This document shows, piece after piece, positions 32,031-49,385 of a DNA stretch of 64,000 bases. The translations under genes and the position numbers were made by a program. Location of the stretch: contig JAIORP010000178.1 in assembly GCA_021108075.1 (NCBI GenBank), positions 31,811 to 95,810 of the forward strand, in the 5' to 3' direction. Numbering within the stretch: position 1 is the first letter of the stretch; each line of letters begins with the position of its first letter. The notes beneath the pieces are model-generated. The model saw only the letters and a program-made list of their open reading frames with translations, made no database searches and had not been told where the DNA came from. Origin of the DNA: Candidatus Omnitrophota bacterium (GTDB lineage: Bacteria; Omnitrophota; Gorgyraeia; Zapsychrales; Zapsychraceae).

Positions 32031-32064
32031 CCCCCTTATCTTGCTGCGGGGTGCGGGGTTCATT
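32031..32064. repeat. GC-rich hairpin motif (CCCCNTANCTTGCTGCGGGGTGCNGGGTTCATT family), copy 1, at the left boundary of the defense island
   Basis: CCCCCTTATCTTGCTGCGGGGTGCGGGGTTCATT is near-identical to 49353..49385. Confidence 0.7.
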
Positions 32065-32296
32065 CAAATCAATTCATGCACCGTTTTTATTCTGACAAGA
32101 GAAAGAAAAGAATAGTTGTCGTGCCACGCAAATGTGTGGTATAAAAGAGTTATCCCCTACACATAGTAATTCCCCGAATCACGTTTATTTAAACTTCAAA
32201 TCATTGTCCCGCATTAGAGAGGGAAAATTTGGACGTTAAAAAAGTAAAACCTTTGCTGGTAAATTATGGCGGGGTTTCTTTCATTTATATATAAGA

Positions 32297-33670
32297 ATGG
32301 GATTTAAAGCGAACAATAACAAAGGGGGCTTTCGTATGGAAAATGTTAATAATATTGATATAATACAAATTAAGAAGGGTACAACATCAGAACAATTAGA
32401 TAGCGATGAACAAATGAAAAAAGAAAAAAAGGATTTAAAGGTCTTATCATTATTCTCAGGTTGCGGCGGTTTAGATTTAGGATTTGAGGGTGATTTTTCA
32501 GTTTTAAAAAACTGTTTAAATAAAAGCGTTCATCCCGAATGGTTTAATGGTGGAAATAATTCTCAGTGGGTGAAAGTTCCTAAAACAAAATTTAAGGTTG
32601 TCTTCGCTAATGATATTATGCCTGCCGCTCGATCTTCATGGTTACCTTATTTCCAAAGTAAAGGAAATAGTGTGATTTTTCATACGGAAAGCATAGTCGA
32701 ACTTGTTAAAAAACATAAAAAAGGTAAAAAGATTTTTCCAAAGGTTGACGTGGTGACTGGTGGGTTCCCCTGTCAGGATTTCAGCGTCGCTGGAAAACGG
32801 AAAGGTTTTAATTCTCATAAAGGACATCATGGGGATCTTTTAACCTCAAAAGATAAGCCTACAGAAGAAAACAGAGGTAAGTTATACATGTGGATGAGGC
32901 ATGTTATCGATATAGTGCGCCCTAAAATGTTTATCGCTGAAAATGTCAAAGGTTTGGTTACTTTAGCGGACGCTAAAGTAATTATAGAAAATGATTTTCG
33001 TTCGATAGGTGAAGGTGGGTACGTGGTTGTTAGCGCTAAAGTGTTGTCCGCCGCTGATTATGGTGTTTCACAACGACGGGAACGCGTTCTTTTCATTGGT
33101 TTTAGAAAAGACACGTTGAAGAAGAAAGCTCTTCAGGCTTTTTCGAACGGGATTATACCTGAAGAGTTTGACCCATATCCAAGACCCACGCATGGCACGT
33201 CAAGAAACAATTGCGTTAGACCTTATGTTACCGTTAAACAAGCTTTGGTGGGTTTATATGAACCTGAAAGATCTTCTGATCTAGCGCAAAAATCTTTTTC
33301 AAGAGCGAAATGGTATGGCAGACATTGCCAAGGGCAAAATGAAGTCAATTTAAATGGCTTGGGGCCAACTATTCGTTCTGAACATCACGGAAACATTGAG
33401 TTTAGACGATTATCTCCAGATAATGGAGGTAAATACCTTGATGAAATTAAAAAGGGCATGAAAGAAAGAAGGTTAACTGTAAGGGAGTGCGCCAGATTAC
33501 AAACTTTTCCTGATGATTACGCGTTTGTTAGAAATTCTTCCACGAATGGAAATGGCTATAATCTCAGCGCTTCTGAGGGTTATAAATTAATTGGCAATGC
33601 GGTGCCTCCACTACTTGGTTTCCATTTGGCTTGGCGGTTGCAAGAAATATGGTCGGACGTTTTTAAATGA
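32297..33670 (+). CDS. DNA (cytosine-5)-methyltransferase, restriction-modification type
   Basis: Motif I LFSGCGGLDLGFE, motif IV GGFPCQDFSVAG, motif VI ENVKGL, motif VIII QRRERV, motif X GNAVPP; 457 aa. More likely start at 32336 (MENVNN). Confidence 0.85.
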   Translation: MGFKANNNKGGFRMENVNNIDIIQIKKGTTSEQLDSDEQMKKEKKDLKVLSLFSGCGGLDLGFEGDFSVLKNCLNKSVHPEWFNGGNNSQWVKVPKTKFKVVFANDIMPAARSSWLPYFQSKGNSVIFHTESIVELVKKHKKGKKIFPKVDVVTGGFPCQDFSVAGKRKGFNSHKGHHGDLLTSKDKPTEENRGKLYMWMRHVIDIVRPKMFIAENVKGLVTLADAKVIIENDFRSIGEGGYVVVSAKVLSAADYGVSQRRERVLFIGFRKDTLKKKALQAFSNGIIPEEFDPYPRPTHGTSRNNCVRPYVTVKQALVGLYEPERSSDLAQKSFSRAKWYGRHCQGQNEVNLNGLGPTIRSEHHGNIEFRRLSPDNGGKYLDEIKKGMKERRLTVRECARLQTFPDDYAFVRNSSTNGNGYNLSASEGYKLIGNAVPPLLGFHLAWRLQEIWSDVFK

Positions 33671-34797
33671 TACTATCTTCCAAGCGTGAAACGAAAAACA
33701 AACAATTTGAAGAACTGCTATCTTCCAGCCAACAGATTTTAGAAAAGAAAAATAAGTCTCACCCACCTTATTTCTCCAAGCGAACACCAACGGAATTTGA
33801 GAAGGATGTGCATGCCGCCATGGAGAAAGCCTCTATTGGCACGCCTTTTGAAGGCACTATTCAGTTAGTTTCTGGCCACCGTTTCCCAGATATTATTGAC
33901 GATGGATATTACGGTGTCGAAGTCAAAACCACTAAGACTAATTGGAAGAGTACGGGTAATAGCGTTTTAGAATCCACGAGAGTGGATAAAATTGAAAGAA
34001 TTTATTTGTTTTTCGGGCGTCTTTCTGACGCGGTCGCTTTCAAATTTCGAAGGTACGAAGAATGTTTGCATGAGGTTGCGGTAACGCATTCCCCCAGATA
34101 TTTAATTGACATGAATTTAGACGCTGGTAAAAGCATATTTGATAAAATGAAAATATCTTATGACGAGTTAAGAAAATTAGATAAACCAATAAAGCCTTTT
34201 GTTCAATATTATCGTTCAATCGCTCAATCGGGTGAAGAGCCATGGTGGATGGAAGGCGCTGATGATGAGGAAGAAACACTCGTGAAGCCCACGGTGTCTT
34301 TATGGAATAGTCTTCCCGTTGATGAGCAAGAAACCATGCGCAATCAAGCGATGGCCTTATTCCCGGAAGTGTTTAGTAATCGTTCCACGAAATACCATAA
34401 TCTTTCTTTATGGTTAGCGACCAGAAAAGGCGTTGTGGATTCATCACTAAGAGATAGGTTCACGGCTGGTGGACGAGAAACGCTTATAGTTAATGGTAAA
34501 AAATATAAAGATGTTCCAAAAATATTTTATCATTTAAAAGGAAATTTAGATAAAGTCGTTAAGCTCGTTAAAAAATTAGATCCTGAAGAAGCGAAATATT
34601 TTTGGAAAGTGGATCAAAACTTAGGTTCTTACACACTCCTGCCAACCTGGCTTGATTTAGTTGTTGGCTACGCGGAGAAGAACCTTGGGAGTAAAGGGAA
34701 GTTTATTGTGCATCTGATAGGTGATTATGCTGGTGAAAAGAACTCCTCACTATTTCTAAAAGAGGAAATGGCGAAATATGGATTAGATTATTCTTAA
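33667..34797 (+). CDS. Putative type II restriction endonuclease (PD-(D/E)XK candidate) cognate to the C5-MTase
   Basis: 376 aa ORF placed between the MTase and vsr with a 4-bp overlap; contains FPDIIDDGYYGVEVKT, which fits a PD-x(n)-ExK nuclease core. Confidence 0.45.
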   Translation: MILSSKRETKNKQFEELLSSSQQILEKKNKSHPPYFSKRTPTEFEKDVHAAMEKASIGTPFEGTIQLVSGHRFPDIIDDGYYGVEVKTTKTNWKSTGNSVLESTRVDKIERIYLFFGRLSDAVAFKFRRYEECLHEVAVTHSPRYLIDMNLDAGKSIFDKMKISYDELRKLDKPIKPFVQYYRSIAQSGEEPWWMEGADDEEETLVKPTVSLWNSLPVDEQETMRNQAMALFPEVFSNRSTKYHNLSLWLATRKGVVDSSLRDRFTAGGRETLIVNGKKYKDVPKIFYHLKGNLDKVVKLVKKLDPEEAKYFWKVDQNLGSYTLLPTWLDLVVGYAEKNLGSKGKFIVHLIGDYAGEKNSSLFLKEEMAKYGLDYS

Positions 34798-34798
34798 T

Positions 34799-35263
34799 AT
34801 GAAAAGAAAAATTAAAAATAAGTTGGGGAGAAATTTTAATCGTGAACGGCAAAAAGATAAGATTACGACTGATAAACGTTCCTCTGTGATGTCAAAAATA
34901 CGATCACGGGGAACAAAGTTTGAGACGGATTTCATAGACGAACTTTCGAGAATGGTAAAAGAAAAATTTGAAACGCACGTTAAGGATATTAGGGGTAAAC
35001 CAGACATTGTGTTCCGCGGTAAAAAGGTTTGTGTTTTTTTGGACAGCAACTTCTGGCACGGTTGGCAGTATCCTCGTTGGAAGCATTTATTAAAGAATGA
35101 TTTTTGGCGAAATAAGATAGAAAAAAATAGACTACGAGATCGAAATACAACCCAGTATTTACGACGTGAGGGATGGGCGGTTATTAGGATTTGGGAACAC
35201 TCCATAAAGAATGATATAGGGGTAGCCTTGAGGAGAATAATGGATGGAGTTGCCAATGGGTAA
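34799..35263 (+). CDS. vsr: Very short patch repair endonuclease
   Basis: RGKPDIVFRGKKVCVFLDSNFWHGW and C-terminal GWAVIRIWEH match the Vsr signature (DxxFWHG ... W.VLR.WE); 154 aa. Confidence 0.85.
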   Translation: MKRKIKNKLGRNFNRERQKDKITTDKRSSVMSKIRSRGTKFETDFIDELSRMVKEKFETHVKDIRGKPDIVFRGKKVCVFLDSNFWHGWQYPRWKHLLKNDFWRNKIEKNRLRDRNTTQYLRREGWAVIRIWEHSIKNDIGVALRRIMDGVANG

Positions 35264-35416
35264 AGAAATTAATATAGATAGTTGATTATTGTAATTGGGC
35301 GATATTCCGTGAATGGGAAACTCAAGACATAAGATCTTATGAATTAATCAGGAAGGCTGTTAAGAGTGAATATAATATTTTTCGGAGTGGCGAGACTTTT
35401 TATTATTGATTATAAA

Positions 35417-35455
35417 TGATGACCGCCCTGACTACTCTTTCGAGAGAGCCTTCTG
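35417..35455. repeat. 39-bp direct repeat, left copy (TGATGACCGCCCTGACTACTCTTTCGAGAGAGCCTTCTG) flanking the TIR-NTPase gene
   Basis: Identical 39-mer found again at 38185..38223; read directly from the sequence. Confidence 0.9.
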
Positions 35456-35543
35456 TCAAAATAAAAGATGTCAGGTATTATATGTTGTTATTCCTGGATT
35501 TATTATTCATTATTTCAGGTGAGAAATTATAAAGGAGAAAACA

Positions 35544-38171
35544 TTGGATATGAAAAATTATGCATCAAAAATGTTTATTAGCTATTCTCATGAAGACGAA
35601 TTATATATGGTTGAATTAAGGAAGCACTTAATTCTCTTAGAAAAAAAAGGCATATTAAACCAATGGTGTGATAAGGAGTTGGTCGCTGGGGATGAATTAC
35701 AGCCCGAGATAATGAAACATTTAGAAGATGCAGATATTATAGCATTTTTAGTAAGTATTGACTTCCAGAGTTCGGATTTCTGTGTTCGAGTAGAATTAGC
35801 GAAGGCTTTGGAGAAGAAAAAGAATCAGGGTGCTGTTATTATTCCAATAATAGTTCGAACATGTAGATGGCAAGATAGTGTGCTTGGCCAATTTGTAGCA
35901 GCAACAAAAAACGGCAACCCTATTTCGGATTATGAGAATGCCGACAAAGCTTGGGTTGAGGTTAGCATGTCTATTGAAAAAGTTGTTGAAAAATTCAATA
36001 AACAAAGAATTGAAAATAAGCCTGAGGATCAAGGCAAAACATTTTTTTTGAAAGAAGAATTTTTAAATGAATTAAACAATACAGAAATAATATTTCAGCA
36101 TAAACATAAAGAGTTTGTAACTCTGGAGGATATATATGTTTTTCCTGATGTAAAAGATTTAAAGAAGGAATACGATAAAATAGAATTGTTGATAAATTCT
36201 GAGCATATTCTTTCATTTGAAGAAGAACAACACCAAGATAAAATATTAATATTAGGAACGGAACAAGCTGGTAAAACTTCTTTAGCGAAAATGATGTTAA
36301 AAATTAGTTTGAATGCTAGCTGGCTGCCTGTTTTTGTTAAAGGGACAGAAATTAAAAGCTCTGATACAAGTGATATGTTGATGAAGTTGATTCCTGAGCA
36401 ATATCAAAAATTGACAAGAGATGAATATTTTAATCAATCTAGAAAGAAAATTTTATTTGTAGATGATTATCATCAATCGAAGTTGAATTCTAAGTATAGA
36501 TTTAGATTTGTTGATTCAGTAGTGAAGCAGTTTGATAAAGTTATTTTGTTTTCTGATAGTATGATGAAGTTTGATGAAATTAATTATTCCCATTTTTCAG
36601 GCTTCTATCAATACGAAATATTGCCTTTGGGGCATGAGCGAAGAGGGGTATTGATTGATAAATGGAATAGCATGGGGCAATCTGAAACGATTGATATTAA
36701 TGCTCTTTATCAAAGAAATGATATTGCAACTATGCACTTGAACGCCATACTAAGGAAGAATGTTGTTCCATCAAAACCACTATATGTTCTGACAATTATA
36801 CAATTGTTAGATACATCAGTTCCATCCGACTATACTTTGACATCTTATGGACATTGTTATCAAACGTTAATTCAACAAGCATTGCAAAAGGTGAAGGTGA
36901 CCATTAAGGATTTTGAGTTATATATTAATTACTTGTCAGAACTAGCATATTATATATTTGAATCAGGTAAAGACATAATAAATGAAGATGCCTTGTTTGC
37001 TTTTCAGCATGAATATTCTAATAAATATATTTTGGATTCTCACAAGAATGTTTTAAGTGTTCTAACAAAAGCAGGCATTTTGAGAATTGGTGATTCAGGG
37101 AATTGTTTTTGTTATCGTTATATTTATTATTTTTACGTGGCAAAGTATATTGCAGACCATCTTCAGACAGCTGATTGTAAAAAGACTGTAGAATATCTTT
37201 GCAAACGGATGCACACGGAGAGAAACGCAAATATTTTAATATTTCTAACTCATCACAGTAAAAATCAGGAGATTTTAGATAAAATATATTCATATACCAC
37301 AGATATATTTAAAGGAATAAATCAGGCTAAGTTGGACTCAGAAGAAACTGATTATTTGGCGGAATTTATGGGAGCAATTCCTCAGTTAGTTATTGAGCAG
37401 AGAAATGCTGAAGAGGAAAGAAAGAAAAAAGTTATAAGAAAAGATAAGATTGAAAGAGATGAGCAGGGCGAAGAGAATGAAGCTGACGATTTGAACGAAA
37501 GTACTCTAGCCGAAATCAATAAATCTTATAGGGCTGTTGATATTATTGGACAAATATTGAGGAATCGGCAGAATTCCTTAACAAGAAAGCAATTGTATGA
37601 TTTGACTTCGTCAGCATTTTCTTCAGGATTAAGATTTCTGAAATTTTTTCTTAATTTAACAACAAAATCAAAAGATGAAATATTAAACGTTATTAAGCAT
37701 CTGATTGAAGAGGATTCCAAGGTGTCTGGAGATGAGATGCCAAAGAAACATAAAATATCCGATGAGGACATAACAAAAAAAGCAAAAAGAATATTTCTAA
37801 TGATAAGTTATGGGATGTCATACTCGGTGATTAAGAAAATAGCTAATTCTACTGGGTCAAAAGAACTTATGCCAATCCTTAATAAAATTGATGAAGACAA
37901 TCCTGGTTCACCCGCTATTAAGCTAATTCAAATAGCAGCTCACCTTGAATTTGCAAAAACTATACCTGAAAAAGAAATACTTGCGTTGGATAAGACTTTA
38001 GAGAAAAATTTAATTGCTAAAAGGTTGTTGCAAGAAATAATTGTTCAATATTTATATTTACATAATGTTGACTACAAAAAAAGACAATGGATAGCTAGTA
38101 AATTAAAAATACCTTTAAGTTTTCAGCGAGAACTTCAACACGAAAAAGCTACAAAGGTGTTGGCTAAGTAG
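35544..38171 (+). CDS. TIR-domain + P-loop NTPase (STAND-like) protein with long alpha-helical C-terminal region; candidate antiphage defense protein
   Basis: N-terminus KMFISYSHEDE ... ADIIAFLVS ... RVELAKAL fits a bacterial TIR domain. Walker A LGTEQAGKTS and Walker B ILFVDDYHQ follow. 875 aa; conspicuously AT-rich codon usage. Confidence 0.75.
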   Translation: MDMKNYASKMFISYSHEDELYMVELRKHLILLEKKGILNQWCDKELVAGDELQPEIMKHLEDADIIAFLVSIDFQSSDFCVRVELAKALEKKKNQGAVIIPIIVRTCRWQDSVLGQFVAATKNGNPISDYENADKAWVEVSMSIEKVVEKFNKQRIENKPEDQGKTFFLKEEFLNELNNTEIIFQHKHKEFVTLEDIYVFPDVKDLKKEYDKIELLINSEHILSFEEEQHQDKILILGTEQAGKTSLAKMMLKISLNASWLPVFVKGTEIKSSDTSDMLMKLIPEQYQKLTRDEYFNQSRKKILFVDDYHQSKLNSKYRFRFVDSVVKQFDKVILFSDSMMKFDEINYSHFSGFYQYEILPLGHERRGVLIDKWNSMGQSETIDINALYQRNDIATMHLNAILRKNVVPSKPLYVLTIIQLLDTSVPSDYTLTSYGHCYQTLIQQALQKVKVTIKDFELYINYLSELAYYIFESGKDIINEDALFAFQHEYSNKYILDSHKNVLSVLTKAGILRIGDSGNCFCYRYIYYFYVAKYIADHLQTADCKKTVEYLCKRMHTERNANILIFLTHHSKNQEILDKIYSYTTDIFKGINQAKLDSEETDYLAEFMGAIPQLVIEQRNAEEERKKKVIRKDKIERDEQGEENEADDLNESTLAEINKSYRAVDIIGQILRNRQNSLTRKQLYDLTSSAFSSGLRFLKFFLNLTTKSKDEILNVIKHLIEEDSKVSGDEMPKKHKISDEDITKKAKRIFLMISYGMSYSVIKKIANSTGSKELMPILNKIDEDNPGSPAIKLIQIAAHLEFAKTIPEKEILALDKTLEKNLIAKRLLQEIIVQYLYLHNVDYKKRQWIASKLKIPLSFQRELQHEKATKVLAK

Positions 38172-38184
38172 AATTCAGAATAAC

Positions 38185-38223
38185 TGATGACCGCCCTGAC
38201 TACTCTTTCGAGAGAGCCTTCTG
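38185..38223. repeat. 39-bp direct repeat, right copy, followed by an inverted-repeat stem (CCGCCCTG ... CAGGGCGG) and a T-run
   Basis: Identical to 35417..35455. The downstream GGGCTCTTATTATCAGGGCGGAACCTTTTTT can pair with the CCGCCCTGA inside the repeat. Confidence 0.9.
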
Positions 38224-38538
38224 GGGCTCTTATTATCAGGGCGGAACCTTTTTTAAATTTAATAAGTATAGCACATTGATTAAACTTGTGTATGAAAGTG
38301 TACTTATAATAATGAAAACAATTTTTTTAGTGGCGAATATGTGTTAGATACCTTTTCTTTGGGATACGTTCGTATGCAATTATGAAAATGAAAAGTATCA
38401 GTTTTCATTTTTTGCGTATTACATGTTTTTTATGATGTTCGTGTATTTTTCAATATAGAAAGAAAAGACGGTTCGTCATGCCTGTTTCCAAGAAGCATTG
38501 ATCGGATTCGGAAAAGATATCGAGAAGAAATTTATTTA

Positions 38539-39459: not shown

Positions 39460-39462
39460 GGG

Positions 39463-40044
39463 ATGATGTTTATTCGTCAAGTTGATAGAATTTTAGGCGG
39501 CCTTTATTGCAAGGCCCGGGGAGTCACATGCCCGGCAAGCGTTAATGTCTACGGCTTTCCCATCATAAAAAAGGATAAAGCCGCGTCCATTACTCTTGCT
39601 GACGGAGTGACTTTAACCAGTCGCAAAACGATCAATCTGGCAGGTATCGCCCATCCGGTTATCCTGGCCGCGCCGTATCCCCGAAGCCATATCGCGATCG
39701 GCCGGAATTCAGGAATGTCGGGCGGCGTTCTTTACGCGGTCAAATCTATTGTGATTGGAAAACACGTGAATATCGGTGTGAACACGTGCGTTTATGACAC
39801 GGATTTTCATCCCCTGGATTTTAAATTGCGGCGCGGGAATGACCCGCGAGATGCTGTCTGCGCGCCTGTTACCATTGAAGATGATGTCTGGATAGGCGGC
39901 GGCTGTTTGATCCTGAAAGGCGTTATGGTAGGAACAGGGGCGGTCATCGGTGCCAGGAGTGTTATCACAAAAGATATTCCACCGTTTACATTATGGGCGG
40001 GTAATCCCGCCCGGTTGATCAAAGAAATTCATCCCTCAAAATGA
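39463..40044 (+). CDS. Hexapeptide-repeat (LbH) acetyltransferase
   Basis: Repeating [LIV]G-x4 hexapeptides (IGRNSGMSGGVLYAV ... IGKHVNIGVN ... IGGGCLILKGVMVGTGAVIGARSVI); 193 aa. Confidence 0.65.
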   Translation: MMFIRQVDRILGGLYCKARGVTCPASVNVYGFPIIKKDKAASITLADGVTLTSRKTINLAGIAHPVILAAPYPRSHIAIGRNSGMSGGVLYAVKSIVIGKHVNIGVNTCVYDTDFHPLDFKLRRGNDPRDAVCAPVTIEDDVWIGGGCLILKGVMVGTGAVIGARSVITKDIPPFTLWAGNPARLIKEIHPSK

Positions 40045-41861
40045 TATCAATTATATTTATAAACAAGGCAAATCGGTTGAAGGCTGTTCTGGACGCCTGT
40101 TCGGATTCAACATGCGCCGTGCTGCGGGTGTTGTATAACCAACAGACGCCCGTGATACTGAACAAGCTAAGGGAACGCGGGGTTAAATATAAACAGATCA
40201 AAGGCCGGGATTATATCGCGCGGTATCAAAATAGTTATTCGCGATTCATAGGAGCTCTGAACATGAAATACGCGGGGCTTCATTGGTGGGCCCTGGACCT
40301 GACCAATAAAAATCCGATTACAACCCGTTTATTTGACGCGGTTTATTGCACCCTCTTAATTGAGAAGCTTGTTGAAAAAGGGGAATTTCAGACGATTGTC
40401 GTTATCAGTGAGGACAAAGACTGTTGTCGGCAGATACAGAGAAATCACGCGGAAAGTGTGAATGTCCATGTTCAAGATTTGACCGTGACCTTCCCGGTGA
40501 AAAAGTTTCTTCAACGGATATTCCCTTTAGGCCCCGTGTATAAGTTTTTATGGGCTTTAACAGGAAAATGTTGGGCCGCGTTGAATCTTCCCGCCCAAAA
40601 AAATTGGGAGAAAGCACCCACGCATTTTATTATGTCTTTGCTTTATGATCCCTGTTTTAAGACCGGCGAATATCAGGATGTCTACTTTGGCCCGTTTGTT
40701 GAATTCATGGCTGAGCGGAATATTCCGTTTGTCAATGTGATGGAGGTCTGCGCCCCGTATCATAAGATGATGAAACAGACCAAACAGAAAGCAAAACGTT
40801 TTGCCGTCTATCCGAAAGAATCGTTTTTATCCGTGAAGCACATGTTCATGAGCCTGATAGCCGCCCTCAAAGCTTTTTATCGCCCGGTCCGTTTGGACGC
40901 CCCGTGCGAGATCGATGGTGTTTGTTGTCAGTATCTCCTCAGACGATATATGCGTTATGAATATGTTTCAACCCGTTATTGTTCCAATCTGCTCATGTTT
41001 TACGCGTTTACCGATATTGCCCGGCAGTTTCCCGGTTGCACCATTTATTATCCTTTTGAAAACCGGTCGTTTGAAAAGATGATCATCAGCGCCGTCCGGC
41101 AGCATCCGTCGCGGATAAAATTAATCGCGTATCAACATGCCTCGGCAACGCTGCGTCATACGAATTTTTTGTTGGCGCAGGGAGAAGAAAAAATATTACC
41201 GCTACCGGACCGCGTTTACACTTTGGGAAGCATTACCCGGAATTTTATCATTGAGCAGGGCGGCTTTCCGCGGGAACTGTTTGTTGAGGGATGTGCTCTG
41301 CGGCAAAAACCTTATACCGGTGCGATCAAAAAGAAGTCCCCGGGCGTGAAGAAATTGCTGGTTGCCTTAGCGACCAACATTGAAGAATATGTCAAAGCTT
41401 TGTTATTTCTGTCTGAAGCGTTTGAATCCGGACAGGGTGAGTATGAGGTCTGGATCCGGCCGCATCCGGTTTTTCCGCTTGAAGACGCCCTGGCGATCAC
41501 GGGCCCGTTATCATTTCATTTTCATCAAGCGGATCAAGAGACCTTACCCGCATCCTTTCAATGGGCGGATATTCTTCTTTTTGTTCATTCTATGGTCGCG
41601 ATTGAAGGTTTGATGTATGGACTGCCGTGCCTGCGCCTCGTGGTGGATAACCCGGTTGATCCTGATCCATTGTTAGGGTGGACAGATTTTAAATGGGATG
41701 TCGCGCGACCGAAGAATTTGATAAAAACTATTGCGTCGATAGAGGCTCTTAGTGATAATGATTTCTATTCCAGGCAGAAAAAAGGCTGTTGTTTTCCTCA
41801 GGAATACATGCGGCCGGTTACAAAGGCGTTTTTAAACACACTTTTATACCAATTCCATTAA
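40041..41861 (+). CDS. Hypothetical protein, 606 aa; possible glycosyl/nonulosonyl transferase, about the same size as 19658..21484
   Basis: Long ORF with ATGA overlap to the acetyltransferase; no recognisable catalytic motif. Confidence 0.4.
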   Translation: MISIIFINKANRLKAVLDACSDSTCAVLRVLYNQQTPVILNKLRERGVKYKQIKGRDYIARYQNSYSRFIGALNMKYAGLHWWALDLTNKNPITTRLFDAVYCTLLIEKLVEKGEFQTIVVISEDKDCCRQIQRNHAESVNVHVQDLTVTFPVKKFLQRIFPLGPVYKFLWALTGKCWAALNLPAQKNWEKAPTHFIMSLLYDPCFKTGEYQDVYFGPFVEFMAERNIPFVNVMEVCAPYHKMMKQTKQKAKRFAVYPKESFLSVKHMFMSLIAALKAFYRPVRLDAPCEIDGVCCQYLLRRYMRYEYVSTRYCSNLLMFYAFTDIARQFPGCTIYYPFENRSFEKMIISAVRQHPSRIKLIAYQHASATLRHTNFLLAQGEEKILPLPDRVYTLGSITRNFIIEQGGFPRELFVEGCALRQKPYTGAIKKKSPGVKKLLVALATNIEEYVKALLFLSEAFESGQGEYEVWIRPHPVFPLEDALAITGPLSFHFHQADQETLPASFQWADILLFVHSMVAIEGLMYGLPCLRLVVDNPVDPDPLLGWTDFKWDVARPKNLIKTIASIEALSDNDFYSRQKKGCCFPQEYMRPVTKAFLNTLLYQFH

Positions 41862-41924
41862 AGAATTGTACAAATAACGAGAGCAAATCCAATAAATGTG
41901 CGCCACGATAATTCTTCTGACTTC

Positions 41925-42000
41925 TCATCGCTATTCGCGTAAAAGCGTTCGCGAAATACGATGAGAATTTTTGGCAATTATTTTATGGATTTGGTATTAA
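41925..42000 (+). repeat. Diverged partial copy of the promoter/operator element upstream of the radical SAM operon
   Basis: TTCGCG-N10-CGCGAA dyad followed by TTGGCAATTATTTTATGGATTTGGTATTAA, alignable to the 3' half of the consensus. Confidence 0.55.
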
Positions 42001-42009
42001 CAGGAAGCC

Positions 42010-43122
42010 ATGAAAAGACTCCATAGGTTATTATTCATCAATATCCCTTTATTGATACGCGCGGCCATCATTAAGGTTTGTCCGCCGATATATCCTGTTT
42101 TACGGTTTAAACCGTATTTAGCCACATTGAACGTCACGGAGAAATGTTGTCTGCGGTGTATCATGTGCAATCTATGGCGGGAATCTCATCCTGATGAGTT
42201 GAAAAAAGATGATTGGTTCAGGATTTTGGATGAGCTAAAGCTGGCAGGGGTTCAGGAAGTTAATTTCACCGGAGGGGAAGCCTTGATGCGCACGGATATC
42301 TTTGATTTGATTCATCACGCGAACACGTCAGGGATGAAATGCGGGTTAACCACAAACGGCTACCTTTTAACAGAAAAGAATATTAACCGTTTGATTCAAT
42401 CCGGGGTCAGGATTTTTAATATTTCCATGGATGCTGTCGGTTCCGCGTATGATGACATTCGGGGTGTCCAGGGCGGCTATGAACGGTTATATTCCGCCTG
42501 CCAACGTTTAAGCCGGGTTAAGAAAGAACAGGGTGTTGACGTGTATCTGTGTTTTTTATTGATGAAAAAAACGTTGGCGCATTATAAAAGTGTTCTGGCG
42601 ATCGGCGAAGAGTCAGGGTTGCCTGTTGTGATTAACCTGTTTGATGTGAACCCTTATTTTTTTCAATCGGCGGCTAAAAAAGATGATTTTTGGATCGGGC
42701 GGGAAGAGCAAAAGGAGTTTAAGGAATTCTTAAAATATATGGTGAATCAAAAAAGTCAAAACAAAGACTTTACGTATCATTCTTTCATCGAAATCGATTA
42801 TTTCTCAAAATATTTTAAGGACCCCCTGCAGAAGACCCTGCCGTGCGTCGTGTCACAAAGCCGGCTGTGCGTCGGACCAAAAGGGCAAGTTTACGGGGGT
42901 TGTTGGGCGATGGGAGAATATGGCCAGCTGCGTCAGCAATCATTAAAGGATATCATGCGTTCGGATAAGTTTAAAACGGCCCATAAAAAGATGTTTTTTA
43001 AAGATTGTCCCGGGTGTTCTTGCGGTTACGCCACGAATTTAAGATATTCGTTTAGAAATGTTTTAACAGAACTGGGGTACAGAATGTTCCCTAAAAAAAG
43101 AGAGAAGATTTATATTTCATGA
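42010..43122 (+). CDS. Radical SAM protein with C-terminal Cys-rich (SPASM-like) region
   Basis: CCLRCIMC (CxxxCxxC) near the N-terminus, C-terminal CPGCSCGY cluster; 370 aa. Confidence 0.7.
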   Translation: MKRLHRLLFINIPLLIRAAIIKVCPPIYPVLRFKPYLATLNVTEKCCLRCIMCNLWRESHPDELKKDDWFRILDELKLAGVQEVNFTGGEALMRTDIFDLIHHANTSGMKCGLTTNGYLLTEKNINRLIQSGVRIFNISMDAVGSAYDDIRGVQGGYERLYSACQRLSRVKKEQGVDVYLCFLLMKKTLAHYKSVLAIGEESGLPVVINLFDVNPYFFQSAAKKDDFWIGREEQKEFKEFLKYMVNQKSQNKDFTYHSFIEIDYFSKYFKDPLQKTLPCVVSQSRLCVGPKGQVYGGCWAMGEYGQLRQQSLKDIMRSDKFKTAHKKMFFKDCPGCSCGYATNLRYSFRNVLTELGYRMFPKKREKIYIS

Positions 43123-44036
43123 TATTACCAACGATTAGTTTTATTATCCCGACCAAAGACAGACAGGAAGACCTGGAAAGATTACTCTGTAGTGTGATCA
43201 AACAAGAGGTCCACCCGGATCAAATTGTCATCGTTGATGGGAGCGCTCAATCGCGACCTGATTATTACGCCCAACGGTTTCCCGACTTAAATATCGTTTA
43301 CACACATACAAAATTTCCACGCCTGACGGCCCAAAGAAATACAGGATTGTCCTTGCTTAATGGAGATATCGATTTAGTATGTTTTTTAGATGATGATATT
43401 GTTTTTTGTGACCGCTCTTTGAAGGCCATGCTGTTATTCTGGGCGAAAGCGCCGGAAACTGTCGGGGGAGCGGTTTTTAACATCATGAATGAAAAGAAAC
43501 CTTCGGCCATCGTGTCTGTTAAGGCCTTATTCTGTACCGGGAGCAAACAACGGGGACGGGTTTTAAAGTCCGGGTACAACACACTCATTTGTCCGGCCGA
43601 AGAGACGAAAGAGGTTCAATGGTTGTTCGGCGGGGGCACGGTCTGGCGCAGAGAGGTCTTCGCGGATTACCGTTTTGATGAATGGTTTGAGGGAACGGGC
43701 CTTTGTGAGGACTTGGATTTCAGTTATCAGGTTGGTAAGGCCTATGGCTTGATGGTTGTCGCTGACGCTCAAGTGCTGCATTTAACGGACCTGGTGCAAC
43801 GTCGCGACAATGTCCAGTTTGGCGTAACGCAAATGTTGAACCGTTATTATTTTGTCCGTAAGAACAAAGAGCTGTCGACATGGTTATGCTTTTGGGGTGG
43901 GATTGGACAATTTTTTGAGAACTGTTTAAGGTCCTTATTTGGGCTGCGGTCAGCCTATCTGCGGCGGGCTTATGGCAATATCATTGGCATGACGCGATTA
44001 AAATCCGTTAAATCAACACAAGCCGTTCGGGATTAG
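43119..44036 (+). CDS. Family 2 glycosyltransferase
   Basis: ISFIIPTKDRQEDL N-terminus, DDD region (FLDDDIVF); 305 aa. Confidence 0.7.
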   Translation: MILPTISFIIPTKDRQEDLERLLCSVIKQEVHPDQIVIVDGSAQSRPDYYAQRFPDLNIVYTHTKFPRLTAQRNTGLSLLNGDIDLVCFLDDDIVFCDRSLKAMLLFWAKAPETVGGAVFNIMNEKKPSAIVSVKALFCTGSKQRGRVLKSGYNTLICPAEETKEVQWLFGGGTVWRREVFADYRFDEWFEGTGLCEDLDFSYQVGKAYGLMVVADAQVLHLTDLVQRRDNVQFGVTQMLNRYYFVRKNKELSTWLCFWGGIGQFFENCLRSLFGLRSAYLRRAYGNIIGMTRLKSVKSTQAVRD

Positions 44037-44045
44037 CCGTCATTT

Positions 44046-45470
44046 ATGGAAAGCAAAAAGAATTATTATCTGAACTTTATCGGGATGGCCTTACTGGGCA
44101 GTTTATCGTGGGGCTATATGTTGTGGGGGAATTATCTCGCGGAGTTTAACCTTTCATTTTCTTTTCTCGATTTCCCGATCTTCATCAGTGAAATTGTTTT
44201 ATTTGTCTGTTTTTTGCTGTTCGTGATCAGAAACCATGGAAAAAATATTTCTGAACGACCTGTTTATTTAATGATCACCGGATATATTTTATTTGTGCTT
44301 CTGAAAGCTCTTTATGGATATTTCAAGTGGGGTCCGCTCGCGCTCCGGAATGCTGCCTTGTTATATTATCCGTTTACAGCTGTTTTAACCTGTTTTTTCT
44401 ATAAAAGGGATTTTTTTAAGTCGAAAAATTCTTATTTATTATTAATGTTGTTATTTGTGATTTTTTTGAATATTGTCGAAACAAAGCGATGGATTTTCGC
44501 GTGTTCGATACTCAGTTTTGTTATTTTGTTCAGGCATAAAGAATTTTTATTGAACAAAATATTATTGTTTCTGCTTTTGTTCTTGTTGCCCTATCCGTAT
44601 TTTTTTCAGACCTCACGGATGATGATTGTTAGTAATTTAATGTCTTTGCTGTATGTTGCCTGGGTGGTCCTGGTTATTGTCAAAGCAAAAAGGGTATGGA
44701 AGTGGGGTATTGCCGGTCTGATCATTATTAGCGTAGGGATTCTATTAAGTTGCTTTTCGAGTAAGTCGGGAATCCTGTCGATGTTGAAGGTCGACTTGAT
44801 CAGGGATGAATATGCCAAAGCGAATAAGAAGTACGAGAAGCAGAGAGATTATTACCGCCCCATTGCTCTGCGTGTAAAAGTTTATAATCCTCGCGCGGAT
44901 AGTTCAATAACGGATATTCCTTCTCATATCGCTCGTAAAAGCAGTGTTGATCATAAAAAAATGATAAAGGAGGAAATAGAGTCCCCTTTGAAAACCAGGG
45001 TTTACGATCAAGCCGTTGAACAGGATCAGGGGGCTAATCTTAGAATCGGTAATATCGTGTTCCGAATTTTTATATGGCAAGATATGTTAGAGGATATGAT
45101 ATCAAAGAAGAGGATATTGGGTTTTGATTTTGGAAAACCGGTACGGTCAAAACGTTTAGAGGTTTTAAACTGGGGGAGCACGGAATGGAGAAGGGATGGT
45201 TGGATCGCGGCGCACAACTCCTATTTGCACATGATTTACCGGACGGGTATTGTTGGCGTCGCCTTGATTGCCTTTTTGATCGGCCATCTGTTAAAAATGA
45301 TCCATGGTTTTAAAAAGAGACGTGACTTGATCGGTTTGTTATTATGCGCCATAATTATCAATTATTTTATAGCCGCCAATTTTTTATTGATTTTTGAGTT
45401 GCCCTACACAGCCATACCCATTTGGTCGTTATACGGGGTTATTATGGCCTATCACAAAAAGTTAGTCTAG
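44046..45470 (+). CDS. Polytopic membrane protein, O-antigen ligase/polymerase (Wzy_C)-like
   Basis: More than 10 predicted hydrophobic helices; C-terminal AHNSYLHMIYRTGIVG resembles the conserved His-containing loop of WaaL/Wzy-family proteins; 474 aa. Confidence 0.5.
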   Translation: MESKKNYYLNFIGMALLGSLSWGYMLWGNYLAEFNLSFSFLDFPIFISEIVLFVCFLLFVIRNHGKNISERPVYLMITGYILFVLLKALYGYFKWGPLALRNAALLYYPFTAVLTCFFYKRDFFKSKNSYLLLMLLFVIFLNIVETKRWIFACSILSFVILFRHKEFLLNKILLFLLLFLLPYPYFFQTSRMMIVSNLMSLLYVAWVVLVIVKAKRVWKWGIAGLIIISVGILLSCFSSKSGILSMLKVDLIRDEYAKANKKYEKQRDYYRPIALRVKVYNPRADSSITDIPSHIARKSSVDHKKMIKEEIESPLKTRVYDQAVEQDQGANLRIGNIVFRIFIWQDMLEDMISKKRILGFDFGKPVRSKRLEVLNWGSTEWRRDGWIAAHNSYLHMIYRTGIVGVALIAFLIGHLLKMIHGFKKRRDLIGLLLCAIIINYFIAANFLLIFELPYTAIPIWSLYGVIMAYHKKLV

Positions 45471-45473
45471 GAT

Positions 45474-46640
45474 ATGAGAATATTAATTGTTCATAATCAA
45501 TACACTGAGCCCGGAGGAGAAGATAAGATTGTTGAGGCGGAACAATCTTTGTTGACTTCTCATGGGCATGATGTTGAGCTTTATCTCCGTTCAAATAACG
45601 AACTGAAGCGGAAGAGTATATTCAGAAAACTCAAATTTGTCTATCTAGAGGTGTTTTCCTCCAAGAAAACGTATTACGATGTATTAGATATGATTAATGC
45701 GTTTGGACCGGACATTGTTCATGTCCATAATATTTTTTTGATGATATCCCCCGCCATTTATGATGTTTGTTTTCAAAAAAAAATCCCTGTCGTGCAAACA
45801 ATTCACAACTACCGTTTTTTTTGCAGCAATGGTTTATTTTTTCGGGAGGGGCGGGTGTGTGAAGACTGTATCTCAAAAGGACCAATTTCTGCTATCACTT
45901 ATCGCTGTTGGCGCAGGTCCATGCTGGCGTCAGGATTGATGACAAAAGTACAGGATAAACTTCATCGAGAATATTTAAATAGTGATAAAATATCGCGCTA
46001 TATCGCTCCTTCGGAATTTACCCGCAAGAAATGCGTTGAATGTGGATTGCCCGAAGATAAGATCGCCGTGAAACCGCATTTTTCACCGGATAAACCGTTT
46101 GAAAATAAGAGCCCCGGGGAATATGTCGCGTTCGTCGGGCGACTTATTGATTACAAGGGGATTATCCTGCTGCTGGAATGTTTTAAAGACTTAAAGGATA
46201 TTCCTTTAAAGATCATTGGTGACGGGCCGTTACATGCTGATGTTGAGCGCGTGGCCGCGGACAATCCACAGATTTCCTTTCTAGGTTACCGGTCGTCCGA
46301 ACAGGTTGGTGAACTATTGTCCAAAGCCGCTTATATTGTTTGTCCGTCTCCTTGTTATGAAACGTTTGGCCGGGTTGTCGTCGAAGCGTTTAGCCAGGGA
46401 ACACCCGCGCTCGTATCAAGAGGCGGGGCGTTAGAAGAGCTGATAACAGATCCTTGTCTCGGTGTTATTGCCGAAGACAATCAACCTCAATATTTCAGAT
46501 CTGCGGCAAAGGATTTGTGGCTGAACGTGCAAAGGGGCGGGGTCGATTTTCAAAAGATCAGGGATATCTATGACCGTCGATATACAGCAGATATTAATTA
46601 TAAGATGATGATGTCCATTTATACCAGTTCCATTAAATAA
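45474..46640 (+). CDS. Family 4 (GT-B, retaining) glycosyltransferase
   Basis: C-terminal E-x7-E region CPSPCYETFGRVVVEAFSQGTPAL; 388 aa. Confidence 0.75.
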   Translation: MRILIVHNQYTEPGGEDKIVEAEQSLLTSHGHDVELYLRSNNELKRKSIFRKLKFVYLEVFSSKKTYYDVLDMINAFGPDIVHVHNIFLMISPAIYDVCFQKKIPVVQTIHNYRFFCSNGLFFREGRVCEDCISKGPISAITYRCWRRSMLASGLMTKVQDKLHREYLNSDKISRYIAPSEFTRKKCVECGLPEDKIAVKPHFSPDKPFENKSPGEYVAFVGRLIDYKGIILLLECFKDLKDIPLKIIGDGPLHADVERVAADNPQISFLGYRSSEQVGELLSKAAYIVCPSPCYETFGRVVVEAFSQGTPALVSRGGALEELITDPCLGVIAEDNQPQYFRSAAKDLWLNVQRGGVDFQKIRDIYDRRYTADINYKMMMSIYTSSIK

Positions 46641-46712
46641 TGACCAAAACCAATTCTGCTGTTCAGAATTAAGATAGAACAATTTATTAATGGATTTGGT
46701 ATTACCAGAACG
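46641..46712 (-). repeat. Promoter/operator repeat element, inverted (minus-orientation) copy, upstream of the 46743 gene
   Basis: The reverse complement of 46641..46706 reads ATACCAAATCCATTAATAAATTGTTCTATCTTAATTCTGAACAGCAGAATTGGTTTTGGTCA. Confidence 0.75.
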
Positions 46713-46742
46713 TTATGAATAAAAAAATATCGCAATAATATT

Positions 46743-48188
46743 ATGACGCGTAATCAATCAAAAAAAATTTTAACCACCTGGTGTTTAATTTTTCTTTGTT
46801 GCTTTTTTTATTGGGGGTACTTATTTTTTGCTTCATCGTTTGATATTGCCCATGACGCGGTCGGGTATCAAAACCTGGGGAAGATGGTCCATCAAAAAGG
46901 CTGGAAAGAATATTTCATCACCGGACCTAACAGGGAGCCGGTCTATATCGCGACAATAGCGTTATCGATGAAGTTGGGTGAAATGTTTTCTCTGAATTAT
47001 CAATATTTTCAGAAATTGACACAGGTTTTATGTCTTTTTATCAGCCAATTGATGGTTTTGGTTCTTCTGCGGCGTTTACAGATAAGGCGGGGAGTGCAGA
47101 TGCTTGTTATTTTTTATATGGGTTTTTCACCCGCGTTGGTGAATGCCGCGTTCAGCTTGTACTCGGAAATAGCCGCGTTGCCGTTTGTTCCATTGCTGTT
47201 AGTATGTTGTTTGATGTCTTTTCAAAGGATCTTTTCAAGCGAGAATAAGAATCCTGTGTCATTTGGGATTTACACGGCTTTCGTTTTTATGGCCGCGACT
47301 CTTTGCAAAGGCATTTTTCATTATGTTTTTCTGACATTGGCCGGAATATTGGGGATGGCGGTTTTGTTTGCGTTATACAAAAAGAGGAAATCGCTTTTGG
47401 TCTCCATTATACTGTTTTTGTGTCCGCTGGTCATGATCTATTCTTTAGGGATCGGTGGTTTTATGGCGTTGAACAAACACTATAATGGTCATTTTGAGAT
47501 AACAAACCGTTATGCCGGGGCGTTATTCGGAGTGGCCTATAAAAGGACAAATCCCGTGACCTCACGTATTGTGATGTCGCATGTTGCCGCAATTCCCGGC
47601 TGGGGTGTGTGCCGGATGTTTTTTACGGAGGAAGAGTGCCGGTATACCGAGTTTTATGCGAGTGATATGTATTATATGGGACCGACATTAACCAATCAAT
47701 TGAAAGATCTCCCGGAAGAAGAACATTATACGGCAACGATTCAGTTTGCTTTTGATAGAATAAAACAACATCCGTTCCGTTATACTATGTTTTGTTTGAT
47801 TGAGGCGCCCAAGATGTTTTTCTGGGAGTCGACACGCATTGGTTTTGTGAACTATCCGCAATGGTTGCATCAGTTGTTTGTGTTTAAGCCGGTCAGGTTA
47901 GGCGTCAGACTGCTTATGTCGTTGCTGACGATGATCGCGCTGGGATATCTTTTGTTGCTGTCGATTAAAAGAAGATCTATGCTGGTTGGTCCAACCCAGG
48001 GCTTAAATATGGACCAGCAAAGATTACAGACCAGCTTGATGATTTTACTTATTGTGTTTTTTTTCACAGGGTTGTATTCTTTATTTTTAATCCTGACAAG
48101 ATACGCCTTGCCGGTCGCGCCGTTATATCTCATCGCGATTGCCATATTTGTGGATGAAATGTGCCCTAAGCCGAAAAGAATCGTTTGA
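46743..48188 (+). CDS. Polytopic membrane protein, possible GT-C-fold glycosyltransferase (ArnT/PMT-like)
   Basis: 481 aa with many hydrophobic segments; preceded by an inverted copy of the promoter-repeat element. Confidence 0.45.
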   Translation: MTRNQSKKILTTWCLIFLCCFFYWGYLFFASSFDIAHDAVGYQNLGKMVHQKGWKEYFITGPNREPVYIATIALSMKLGEMFSLNYQYFQKLTQVLCLFISQLMVLVLLRRLQIRRGVQMLVIFYMGFSPALVNAAFSLYSEIAALPFVPLLLVCCLMSFQRIFSSENKNPVSFGIYTAFVFMAATLCKGIFHYVFLTLAGILGMAVLFALYKKRKSLLVSIILFLCPLVMIYSLGIGGFMALNKHYNGHFEITNRYAGALFGVAYKRTNPVTSRIVMSHVAAIPGWGVCRMFFTEEECRYTEFYASDMYYMGPTLTNQLKDLPEEEHYTATIQFAFDRIKQHPFRYTMFCLIEAPKMFFWESTRIGFVNYPQWLHQLFVFKPVRLGVRLLMSLLTMIALGYLLLLSIKRRSMLVGPTQGLNMDQQRLQTSLMILLIVFFFTGLYSLFLILTRYALPVAPLYLIAIAIFVDEMCPKPKRIV

Positions 48189-48389
48189 TGAAACACACTG
48201 TTAAAAATCAGGTAACGATACAGGTCTCACCCGGTCCAAAGATCCGGAAAACGCTCATTGACAAAAATTGTATTTATTTTTTGACGATACGAGAAAATAA
48301 TGTTTAAGTATTATTCATGAAAGAGACAACATCAGAAGAAGCCCGCGTGAATTAATCTTTATTTATGAACGATTCGATCAGGCCTGGGC

Positions 48390-48910
48390 CAATCATATGG
48401 TTGATTGTCAGGTCAAAATCAAAAATAAAGTCGATACGGCCAAAGCTAACGGTTTAGATCAACTCAGTCAAGGACAACAAAATTATTGACACAAGCAATA
48501 TCGGGAAATTATTACTGAAGGTCATCAGGCCAATCCGTGGAGGATCCTCCTGACACACAGCGTAAGCGCGGTCGTCCGTAAAAAGGAAAAACACGATGTT
48601 TGCTTGAGCGTTTGGATGGTCATTGGCGCAAGGTATTACGCTTCATGTATGATTTTCGTATTCCTTTTGACAACAACTTATCCGAGCGGGATGTACGCAT
48701 GATGAAAGTCCGTCAGAAAATTTCAGGAACATTCCATCCGCCGGATATGGCCTCAATCTTCCGCGAGATGCGCCGTTTTATCTCAACGGTTCGTAAGCAG
48801 TGAATCCCTCTTCTGCATGCCATCGACCTGATCTTCACGGGCCAACCGTTAAAGCTGTTCGTTCACCAAATTATCGGTGAGCGCCTGTCGAGCTTTTGGG
48901 CCGGGTGAGA
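48390..48910 (+). pseudogene. IS66-family transposase (TnpC) C-terminal remnant, frameshifted
   Basis: Pieces in different frames: QYREIITEGHQANP, PPDTQRKRGRPKKGK, LERLDGHWRKVLRFMYDFRIPFDNNLSERDVRMMKVRQKISGTFH, then ...LHAIDLIFTGQP. Together they match the conserved C-terminus of IS66 transposases. There is no intact ORF or N-terminal part. Confidence 0.55.
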
Positions 48911-49111
48911 CCGGAATAGTTACATATAAAGAAAGTCTTCCCGATCATGCATCCTGAAACCACCTTTGCCAGAAAGTGTGTCGACTTGTATTCAGATAGC
49001 TGCAAAAAATAGTTGAAGGGAATGATCGGGACGAAGAAGGCTGTTTTTTAGATTAACGTTTATTTTATATTTATTACAGGAGTTTATTTGTGCTGGCGAA
49101 TCATCGTGTTT

Positions 49112-49190
49112 ATACCAAATCCATTAATAAATTGCTCTATCTTAATTCTGAAAAGCAGAATTTGTTTTGGTCATTATTTAATCGAAAGAA
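49112..49190 (+). repeat. Promoter/operator repeat element, internally deleted/interrupted copy in the IS-remnant region
   Basis: ATACCAAATCCATTAATAAATTGCTCTATCTTAATTCTGAAAAGCAGAATTTGTTTTGGTCATTATTTAAT. The dyad segment is missing. The 3' end, TCATTGGAATTGGTATTATT, is displaced to 49381..49400. Confidence 0.65.
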
Positions 49191-49352
49191 TTCCCCTGAG
49201 CTTGCTCCGGGGTTGCCGCCTGAAGGAAGAGTTCGAGAAAACATGGGTTTCTCGAATACAGAATTCCATCGTAGCATGGATTCGACCGTCGCAAATTTTC
49301 TCGAGGGTAAACAAAGGGTTTACTCAAATCGAGCTATAGCCGTAATAGGATA

Positions 49353-49385
49353 CCCCGTAGCTTGCTGCGGGGTGCTGGGTTCATT
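49353..49385. repeat. GC-rich hairpin motif, copy 2 (a partial third copy lies at 49194..49220)
   Basis: CCCCGTAGCTTGCTGCGGGGTGCTGGGTTCATT; CCCCG/CGGGG forms a 5-bp stem around a 10-nt loop. Confidence 0.7.

Follow-up and report, generated by a model that had tools for sequence, protein, structure and literature searches.

The subject of this study is a GC-rich hairpin motif that recurs in a 64-kb chromosome segment (hereafter the window) of a Candidatus Omnitrophica metagenome-assembled genome (MAG; contig ENA ERZ26872899 NODE_8). We conclude with high confidence that the motif is the right-end subterminal hairpin, together with the terminal oligonucleotide (hairpin-N-TTCATT↓, where the arrow marks an element boundary), of an insertion sequence (IS) of the IS200/IS605 family, and that the window holds two transposase-less derivatives of such an element. 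One is a 203-nt palindrome-associated transposable element (PATE) that is nested in another repeat, and the other is most likely a decayed relic with a single hairpin.

Motif copies in the window

The 33-nt pattern CCCCNTANCTTGCTGCGGGGTGCNGGGTTCATT matches exactly at 32032-32064 (copy 1) and at 49353-49385 (copy 2), both on the + strand, with a chance expectation of none in 100 shuffles. The two near-identical copies that a first-pass annotation of this DNA had reported are therefore real. A third, degenerate copy had also been listed; it exists (copy 3, 49193-49212), but its similarity is limited to the hairpin, CCCCTGAGCTTGCTCCGGGG, and it does not share the tail of copies 1 and 2. When the whole window was scanned for the hairpin with up to five mismatches, only copies 1-3 were returned, while shuffles give 0.17 matches each. 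All three hairpins lie on the + strand, and copies 2 and 3, which are identical at 17 of 20 positions, stand in direct orientation. Instead of the stem of 4-5 bp with a 10-nt loop that was originally proposed, copy 2 forms a perfect 8-bp stem closed by a CUUG tetraloop, with a folding energy of -18 kcal/mol over a 43-nt stretch.

A 203-nt element nested in a D1 repeat

Copies 3 and 2 are the left and right hairpins of one 203-nt unit, which is inserted into a copy of an intergenic repeat family, D1. The unit and its surroundings are organized as follows:

49107..49182, + strand: left half of the interrupted D1 copy (insertion target)
49177..49182, + strand: target hexanucleotide TTTAAT, directly 5' of the element; putative cleavage/target site, equivalent to a transposon-adjacent motif
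49183..49385, + strand: 203-nt element CGAAAGAATT...GGGTTCATT, very probably a transposase-less IS200/IS605 derivative (PATE)
49189..49192, + strand: putative left guide tetranucleotide AATT, 5' of the left hairpin foot
49193..49212, + strand: left-end subterminal hairpin (copy 3), CCCCTGAG-CTTG-CTCCGGGG, one mismatch
49232..49256, + strand: internal 9-bp hairpin, TTCGAGAAA-ACATGGG-TTTCTCGAA
49349..49352, + strand: putative right guide tetranucleotide GATA, 5' of the right hairpin
49353..49372, + strand: right-end subterminal hairpin (copy 2), CCCCGTAG-CTTG-CTGCGGGG
49373..49385, + strand: right-end tail TGCTGGGTTCATT with terminal TTCATT; putative cleavage after 49385
49386..49396, + strand: right half of the interrupted D1 copy, GGAATTGGTAT

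Alignment to intact D1 copies confirms the earlier claim that motif copies split another repeat, and corrects the two halves to 49107-49182 and 49386-49396. The interrupted copy reads ...GGTCATTATTTAAT↓203-nt insert↓GGAATTGGTAT..., the intact copies ...GGTCATTATTTAATGGAATTGGTAT.... The element sits exactly between TTTAAT and GGAATTGG of the repeat, and nothing is duplicated or lost; the filled site TTTAAT↓element↓GGAATTGG compares with TTTAATGGAATTGG in the intact paralogs, without any target duplication. At the target these paralogs read ...TTATTTAAT↓GGAATTGG..., and relatives of the element, both autonomous and mini forms, start right after TT(T/C)AAT, with C as the next base.

Since the empty paralogous sites and the relatives put the left boundary after TTTAAT, a DDE-type MITE (miniature inverted-repeat transposable element) with a 5-bp target duplication T(C/G)GAA is rejected, and the apparent duplication is an artefact of a CGAA with which the insert happens to begin. 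A classical MITE was rejected because the element has no terminal inverted repeats, the left terminus CGAAAGAATT showing no match to the reverse complement of the right terminus (AATGAACCCA), and no target-site duplication. An element of the IS1111/IS110 type, aimed at the inverted repeat of D1, was considered and dropped after tnpA-flanked copies of the hairpin had been found. A link to the nearby IS66 remnant was discarded as well, since IS66 has different ends and the remnant (about 48300-48923) extends no further than about 48923. Copies 2 and 3 had been placed inside the remnant but actually lie ~270-460 nt downstream of it.

Altogether, the unit shows the features by which PATEs are recognised: subterminal palindromes in direct orientation on the same strand, no inverted repeats, no duplication, ends of the type that accompany tnpA and tnpB in other organisms, and a length too short for a transposase. 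Consistent with the last feature, tblastn with TnpA and TnpB over the window found no such sequence in the 203-nt element. An open reading frame (ORF) at 49090-49560, recorded at NCBI as hypothetical protein K8S27_13990, crosses the D1 repeat and the whole element; among 5.8 billion proteins it has no homologue but itself, and it is almost certainly a spurious gene call.

The hairpin at the ends of IS200/IS605 elements

The wider search for the motif that had been suggested earlier gave a divided answer. The full 24-position motif including the window tail had 0 matches in genome and metagenome contig collections, because this pattern is too specific and the source MAG lies outside those collections, and blastn of the 271-nt region against plasmids and phages returned noise only. 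The hairpin alone, by contrast, has many matches, some of them adjoining tnpA or tnpB: the hairpin-only pattern CCCCNNANCTTGCTNCGGGGT occurs in 6 viral loci and at least 120 metagenome loci. The statistics below refer to the 130 viral and metagenome matches listed, the metagenome list (at least 120) being a lower bound.

These matches are not noise, because they have conserved flanks in common. The commonest flanks among the matches listed are (T)GATA-hairpin-AGTTCATT, which gives the right-end layout GATA-hairpin-NN-TTCATT↓. A tail of N1-5 plus TTYAYT follows the hairpin in 68 of the 130; within these 68 listed right-end-tail matches GATA is the commonest 5' tetranucleotide (33/68) and base composition is random after TTCATT. 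The likeness of the tail to a tRNA T-loop, noted in the first-pass annotation, is hence coincidental: TTCATT is a conserved terminal oligonucleotide after which the sequences diverge. The hairpin of copy 2 with the T that follows (49353-49373, 21 nt) is the commonest variant, accounting for 55 of the 130 matches listed.

Covariation, which was likewise to be checked, is seen in the stem. Across the 130 matches listed, stem pair 6/15 covaries (C-G 57, U-G 56, G-C 5, U-A 4, A-U 3, unpaired 5; G-C in copy 3 and U-G in copy 2), and at the two free stem positions opposite a fixed C, G is found 124 and 128 times, respectively. This pattern indicates that the hairpin is under selection as a structure.

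The 21-nt hairpin CCCCGYAGCTTGCTGCGGGGT flanks Y1 (IS200) tnpA genes and ends tnpB genes on cyanobacterial plasmids, IMG/VR contigs and metagenome contigs. The most informative relative is an autonomous element on IMG/VR contig 2534682207_000010 (locus L055), in which an ORF for a 156-aa Y1 transposase is followed by the hairpin after 19 nt. Its product matches Pfam Y1_Tnp (E 4e-35) and the NCBIfam equivalog transpos_IS200 (125.7 bits against a cut-off of 55), while it scores 27 against a cut-off of 80 on the model for REP-associated tyrosine transposases (RAYT; REP, repetitive extragenic palindrome). A second hairpin precedes tnpA at the left end, TTTAAT↓CAAAAAGAGGGTTTAATT-CCCCGCAGCTTGCTGCG..., and the right end reads ...TTCGATA-CCCCGCAGCTTGCTGCGGGGT-AGTTCATT↓. 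Four signals are common to L055 and the 203-nt unit: the target TAAT↓ (TTTAAT↓C in both), the left AATT, which occupies the same place in L055 (...GGGTTTAATT-hairpin), the right GATA and the terminal CATT↓. The hairpin itself is the same but for 1 to 3 positions. L055 differs in carrying the transposase, in a left hairpin without the outer GGGG arm, in its tail TAGTTCATT and in an unrelated interior. This tail is the common one, and the tail of the window element is 4 nt longer than it and than that of the wider hairpin family.

Further loci show the same association. A TnpA match adjoins the exact hairpin pattern in ten loci, directly upstream and on the same strand in nine and between two motif copies in L167. 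An annotated IS200/IS605 tnpA on a Synechocystis plasmid has a variant hairpin on both sides, the cyanobacterial plasmid loci L060 and L061 have the same tnpA arrangement with a variant hairpin, and a TnpB ORF ends in the hairpin in L059. The carriers of TnpA (L055, L060, L093, L124, L127, L167, L172, L187, L202) and of TnpB (L059) are all other organisms. Near-identical copies of the L055 type (L172, L069/L083, L062) define the boundaries: left flanks vary up to TTAAT and the sequences are identical after it, and right flanks vary after TTCATT. Mini elements with two hairpins (L057, L070, L148) and elements with a single hairpin, in which a left-type 5' part is joined to a right-type tail (L058, L063, L110, L195, L171, L186), are further relatives; the single-hairpin form is common in the matches listed. 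As such, the first suggestion that the motif could be the end of another mobile element was correct, since elements of the IS200/IS605 family have this hairpin and TTCATT tail as their right end.

Over its left 65 nt the window element shares 83% identity with the PATE of L148, which keeps the internal 9-bp hairpin with a C-G to T-A double change. The L148 element is a short PATE at 1090-1196 of contig Ga0066690_10247188, which ends inside the right-end hairpin. In L167, a metagenome contig of 2323 nt, tnpA is bracketed by two copies of the right-end type whose left flanks are identical. One IS200 copy there lies in tandem directly after the TTCATT end of another copy; this tandem suggests that the terminal CATT may itself serve as a target. 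The same 21-nt hairpin is also part of a second, very abundant repeat with other flanks, TTGAATCCAGGAGCGAGCGCATT-hairpin-TAGCGAGCGATTAGAATAA, which makes up 34 of the 130 matches listed (e.g. L097, L122, L136, L179); no transposase was seen beside the hairpins with these flanks.

A probable single-hairpin relic beside the defence island

Copy 1 lacks a partner hairpin and is best described by the following candidate features:

32002..32006, + strand: candidate target TTAAT, followed by C as in the relatives
32007..32064, + strand: candidate 58-nt single-hairpin (terminal-only) PATE, CAGTG...AAGTTT-hairpin-TGCGGGGTTCATT, with the layout of L058, L110, L195, L171 and L186
32032..32051, + strand: copy 1 hairpin, degenerate, CCCCTTAT-CTTG-CTGCGGGG, with two pairs broken
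32052..32064, + strand: right-end-type tail of copy 1, TGCGGGGTTCATT

Of the 130 matches listed, 2 have T at hairpin position 5 and none has T at position 8; copy 1, with T at both, is therefore decayed. A TTAAT followed by C stands 25 nt upstream of its hairpin. Hence 32007-32064 is most likely a decayed terminal-only PATE, of which the right boundary is firm and the left boundary would be set by this TTAAT.

Copy 1 lies in a zone of ~180 nt that runs from the stop of the last glycan gene (31934) to the start of homology of a restriction-modification (R-M) cassette. DNA homology of this Dcm-376aa-Vsr cassette to L047 begins 52 nt past the motif, at ~32116, where a promoter-like TTG...TATAAAAG stands. 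There is no copy of the motif at the right border of the island (38224-38538), so that it occurs on the left side only, and it is absent from the related Dcm-Vsr cassettes L047 and L053; both observations place copy 1 in the junction zone and not in the cassette. A search for an island-free allele via the neighbouring 2-hydroxyacid dehydrogenase was uninformative, as relatives are at most 38% identical. Nothing ties copy 1 to the arrival of the island. TTAAT targets are plentiful in AT-rich DNA between genes, and the + strand of the window has 141 of them. The association with two insertion scars that had seemed suggestive thus holds for copies 2 and 3, which belong to the nested insertion, but for copy 1 it is positional only.

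As to the island itself, the Dcm / 376-aa ORF / Vsr triad occupies 32336-35263 in the window, 6001-8926 in L047, where it comes after HipBA, and 3112-6015 in L053, where it stands beside a tyrosine integrase and GmrSD; it is a mobile R-M module whose contexts are unrelated to one another. The TIR-STAND gene (35544-38171) is bracketed by a direct repeat of 51 nt (92% identical; 35405-35455 and 38173-38223). The second copy of this repeat continues into a stem, CCGCCCTGA...TCAGGGCGG, that has a T-run, and a Logan contig ends in the first copy (35446); the repeat may be a cassette boundary or a duplicated terminator.

Copy number of the right end

In three other samples, contigs of this organism have breaks at the right boundary of the element. 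SPAdes contig L043 ends at 49385, and L040 from the same sample starts at 49331, giving a 55-nt overlap that equals k; two Logan contigs (k=31) from different runs begin at 49356, which leaves 30 nt (k-1) up to the boundary. For either k, 49385 is the last base of the shared node, and the branch at 49385/49386 is therefore an out-branch. This implies that at least 55 nt of the right end would continue into another right flank somewhere in the sample, i.e. that the end is probably multi-copy in the genome. Empty-site polymorphism was rejected as the cause of the breaks, as it would put the break at or after 49385. Every other contig break in the region coincides with D1, the IS66 remnant or the 51-nt repeat.

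Genomic context and the D1 repeats

The window is part of a very long polysaccharide locus, interrupted by an AT-rich block at 32.3-38.2 kb (Dcm, the 376-aa ORF, Vsr and TIR-STAND), and all of its genes lie on the G-rich + strand (skew +0.145). For the ORFs 31008-31934, 421-1161 and P0002, exact look-ups of the protein yielded no record. Three paralogous ORFs of ~606 aa stand in the glycan locus (5138-6958, 19658-21484 and 40041-41861), each preceded by a short gene of the acyl- or methyltransferase type; for the middle ORF, Pfam PF27878 (PFTS_polysacc) is on record. These sets suggest a modular, repeatedly duplicated polysaccharide-modification unit.

The D1 family comprises six copies, in both orientations and always intergenic:

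7016-7124, + strand: D1 copy
28395-28503, + strand: D1 copy
49107-49182 plus 49386-49396, + strand: D1 copy interrupted by the 203-nt element
54823-54931, + strand: D1 copy
41846-41999, - strand: D1 copy
46632-46704, - strand: D1 copy

They have terminal inverted repeats ATACCAAWTCCATTAAWWAAT, are ~85-150 nt long (most ~85-110) and fall into two subtypes, with or without a central TTCTCG...CGAGAA hairpin; D1 also breaks contigs in other assemblies. D1, which had been labelled a "promoter/operator repeat", looks like a MITE rather than a regulatory region. The frame-broken C-terminal remnant of an IS66-family transposase (~48300-48923, ...FDNNLSERDVRMMKVRQKISGTF...) lies upstream of the interrupted copy. 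Logan contigs end inside it at 48608 and 48673, which makes it probable that the genome has intact IS66 copies at other sites.

Discussion

With these data in mind, we consider how the 203-nt element may have reached its site. Following the model of IS608 and ISDra2 (PMC5027513), a Y1 HUH transposase (TnpA) encoded elsewhere in the genome would bind both hairpins on the single-stranded top strand, and the tetranucleotides 5' of the hairpins (AATT, GATA) would locate the cleavage sites, TAAT↓ at the left flank and CATT↓ at the right end; for AATT this guide role is proposed by analogy with IS608 (PMC5027513). The top strand would then be excised as a circle, and the circle would be pasted 3' of TT(T/C)AAT in single-stranded DNA at a replication fork, without target duplication. 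TnpA would act in trans, and the element may still be mobilized in this way today. The hairpins lie on the G-rich + strand, co-oriented with all genes. This would make the + strand the lagging-strand template, as expected for IS200/IS605 elements (PMC5027513), a weak argument, given that the replication direction is itself deduced and only two insertion events are at hand.

The proposed elements have close parallels in known systems. IS608 of Helicobacter pylori and ISDra2 of Deinococcus radiodurans likewise carry subterminal hairpins on one strand with guide tetranucleotides 5' of their feet, and insert 3' of a short specific target without duplication; their orientation on the lagging-strand template is one that the window hairpins would match. 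They differ in target (TTAC or TTGAT, in place of TT(T/C)AAT in the window), in right end (TCAA, in place of TTCATT) and in hairpin sequence, and the window copies are non-autonomous. PATEs, defined in Haloquadratum walsbyi as transposase-less IS200/IS605 derivatives (PMC3119063), are the closest class: they too have no inverted repeats or duplication, near-terminal palindromes that are alike at both ends and resemble those of tnpA/tnpB elements, a length too short for a transposase, single-palindrome forms of ~50 nt, and a habit of nesting in other repeats. In Haloquadratum, 52-bp terminal-only PATEs arise by deletion between the two palindromes (PMC3119063), and in Geobacillus stearothermophilus minimal PATE-like elements rely on TnpA in trans (PMC10055086). 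The window element, in contrast, stands in a Candidatus Omnitrophica MAG and is unrelated in sequence to archaeal PATEs.

Several points weigh against the assignment to the IS200/IS605 family. Neither TnpA nor TnpB was found across the 64 kb of the window and ~9 kb of additional flanking DNA. The right-end tail has 13 nt (TGCNGGGTTCATT) where 9 are usual, and scans of genome and metagenome contigs found no database element with the 13-nt variant; at the other end, the left hairpin is just 10 nt from the element boundary. Copy 1 has neither the GATA nor the AATT guide, and its left limit is taken from one TTAAT, which has a chance of ~2-3% of occurring within 25 nt. The strand bias is that of two insertion events. 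As for copy number, the evidence is that of assembly breakpoints, and neither DNA pattern scans nor protein searches retrieved a second full copy from this genome. Protein-database searches for ORFs over other copies, with the 156-aa ORF that crosses the window element and with a concatenate of the five other frames, returned only the window's own ORF.

The strongest of the other explanations is that the hairpin, or the 203-nt unit as a whole, acts mainly as RNA, be it a terminator, a small RNA or a trans-acting guide RNA of TnpB (omega RNA). The CUUG tetraloop is stable, the fold of the 221-nt region is better than that of shuffles (z = -2.5), one compensatory change relative to L148 is present in the internal hairpin, and in L059 the hairpin occupies the 3' end of tnpB, the part that encodes omega RNAs; PATEs often encode omega RNAs (PMC10055086). 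However, the stem is followed by no U-tract and was not flagged as a terminator, and an intrinsic terminator was accordingly rejected. No Rfam match at gathering scores was obtained (Rfam 15; window and L054-L059), only noise near the element at E up to 10, and no TnpB is seen in the window or the ~9 kb of flank. As the covariation fits a DNA hairpin and an RNA hairpin alike, and as an RNA function would be an added role and not an alternative origin, we consider a mainly RNA-based explanation unlikely. A small structured RNA, one of the options first offered, may still be a secondary role, because the guide-RNA region of TnpB-carrying members such as L059 includes the right-end hairpin. It is very unlikely that the hairpins are REP-like domesticated repeats served by a single-copy RAYT instead of IS derivatives. 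REPs, too, are short GC-rich palindromes outside genes on which Y1 HUH enzymes act, GTAG occurs in the stem, the motif is probably multi-copy and no transposase is nearby. Yet REPs are usually very abundant and form inverted pairs around a single RAYT gene, while the window has no inverted REP pairs, the hairpins on either side of tnpA are left and right ends in direct orientation, and target and end are defined (TTTAAT↓...TTCATT↓). Moreover, the enzymes are of the IS200 type: hairpin-adjoining TnpAs score 126 and 143 bits on the IS200 equivalog but only 27 and 24 on the RAYT model (cut-off 80).

The location of copy 1 in the narrow zone between the glycan gene stop at 31934 and the start of R-M homology could also be read as an attachment or recombination site for integration of the defence island, as was proposed at first. 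This is highly improbable, given that the right border carries no copy, that cassette homology starts only beyond the motif, that the Dcm-Vsr cassettes L047 and L053 are without it, and that the motif flanks IS200 genes elsewhere. Furthermore, there is no integrase among the island ORFs and no integrase or tRNA in the window; the origin from a tRNA end that was to be checked finds no support, since ARAGORN detects no tRNA or tmRNA gene there. We attach next to no probability to chance similarity or a coding remnant, in which the tail GGTGCTGGGTTCATTGGA would be read as the G-A-G-F-I-G Rossmann motif of sugar epimerases. One frame does give LLRGAGFIG in a locus rich in NAD-dependent sugar enzymes, but the final GG of this reading belongs to the D1 repeat and not to the motif, the two flanks are unrelated, no match is expected by chance, all-frame protein searches found nothing, and more than 100 loci carry this DNA as a conserved end of an IS that does not code for protein. 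We thus retain the reading as an IS200/IS605 right end with its two transposase-less derivatives.

In summary, this reading explains two odd GC-rich hairpins in an AT-rich glycan and defence locus, removes the spurious K8S27_13990 from the annotation, and means that the motif is not to be taken as a boundary signal of the defence island. The window element is an ordinary small mobile element of the PATE kind, which is already well known, and this member is new. A quite unlikely extension is that the 203-nt element encodes a TnpB omega RNA whose guide is the flank GGAATTGGTATTATTAG; with TTTAAT before it, this sequence forms the right terminal repeat of the D1 family. If true, a transcript would run from inside the element into GGAATTGGTATT, and a TnpB acting in trans would be aimed at other D1 copies, linking the two repeat families by RNA-guided homing. 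As a weaker variant, the 4-nt longer tail may mark an Omnitrophota-specific subfamily with altered cleavage geometry. More generally, CCCCGYAGCTTGCTGCGGGGT with target TT(T/C)AAT and terminal TTCATT is a signature common to IS200/IS605 elements and their mini derivatives on cyanobacterial plasmids, in viral contigs, in many metagenomes and now in Candidatus Omnitrophica, and it is useful for finding such elements and TnpB guide-RNA regions.

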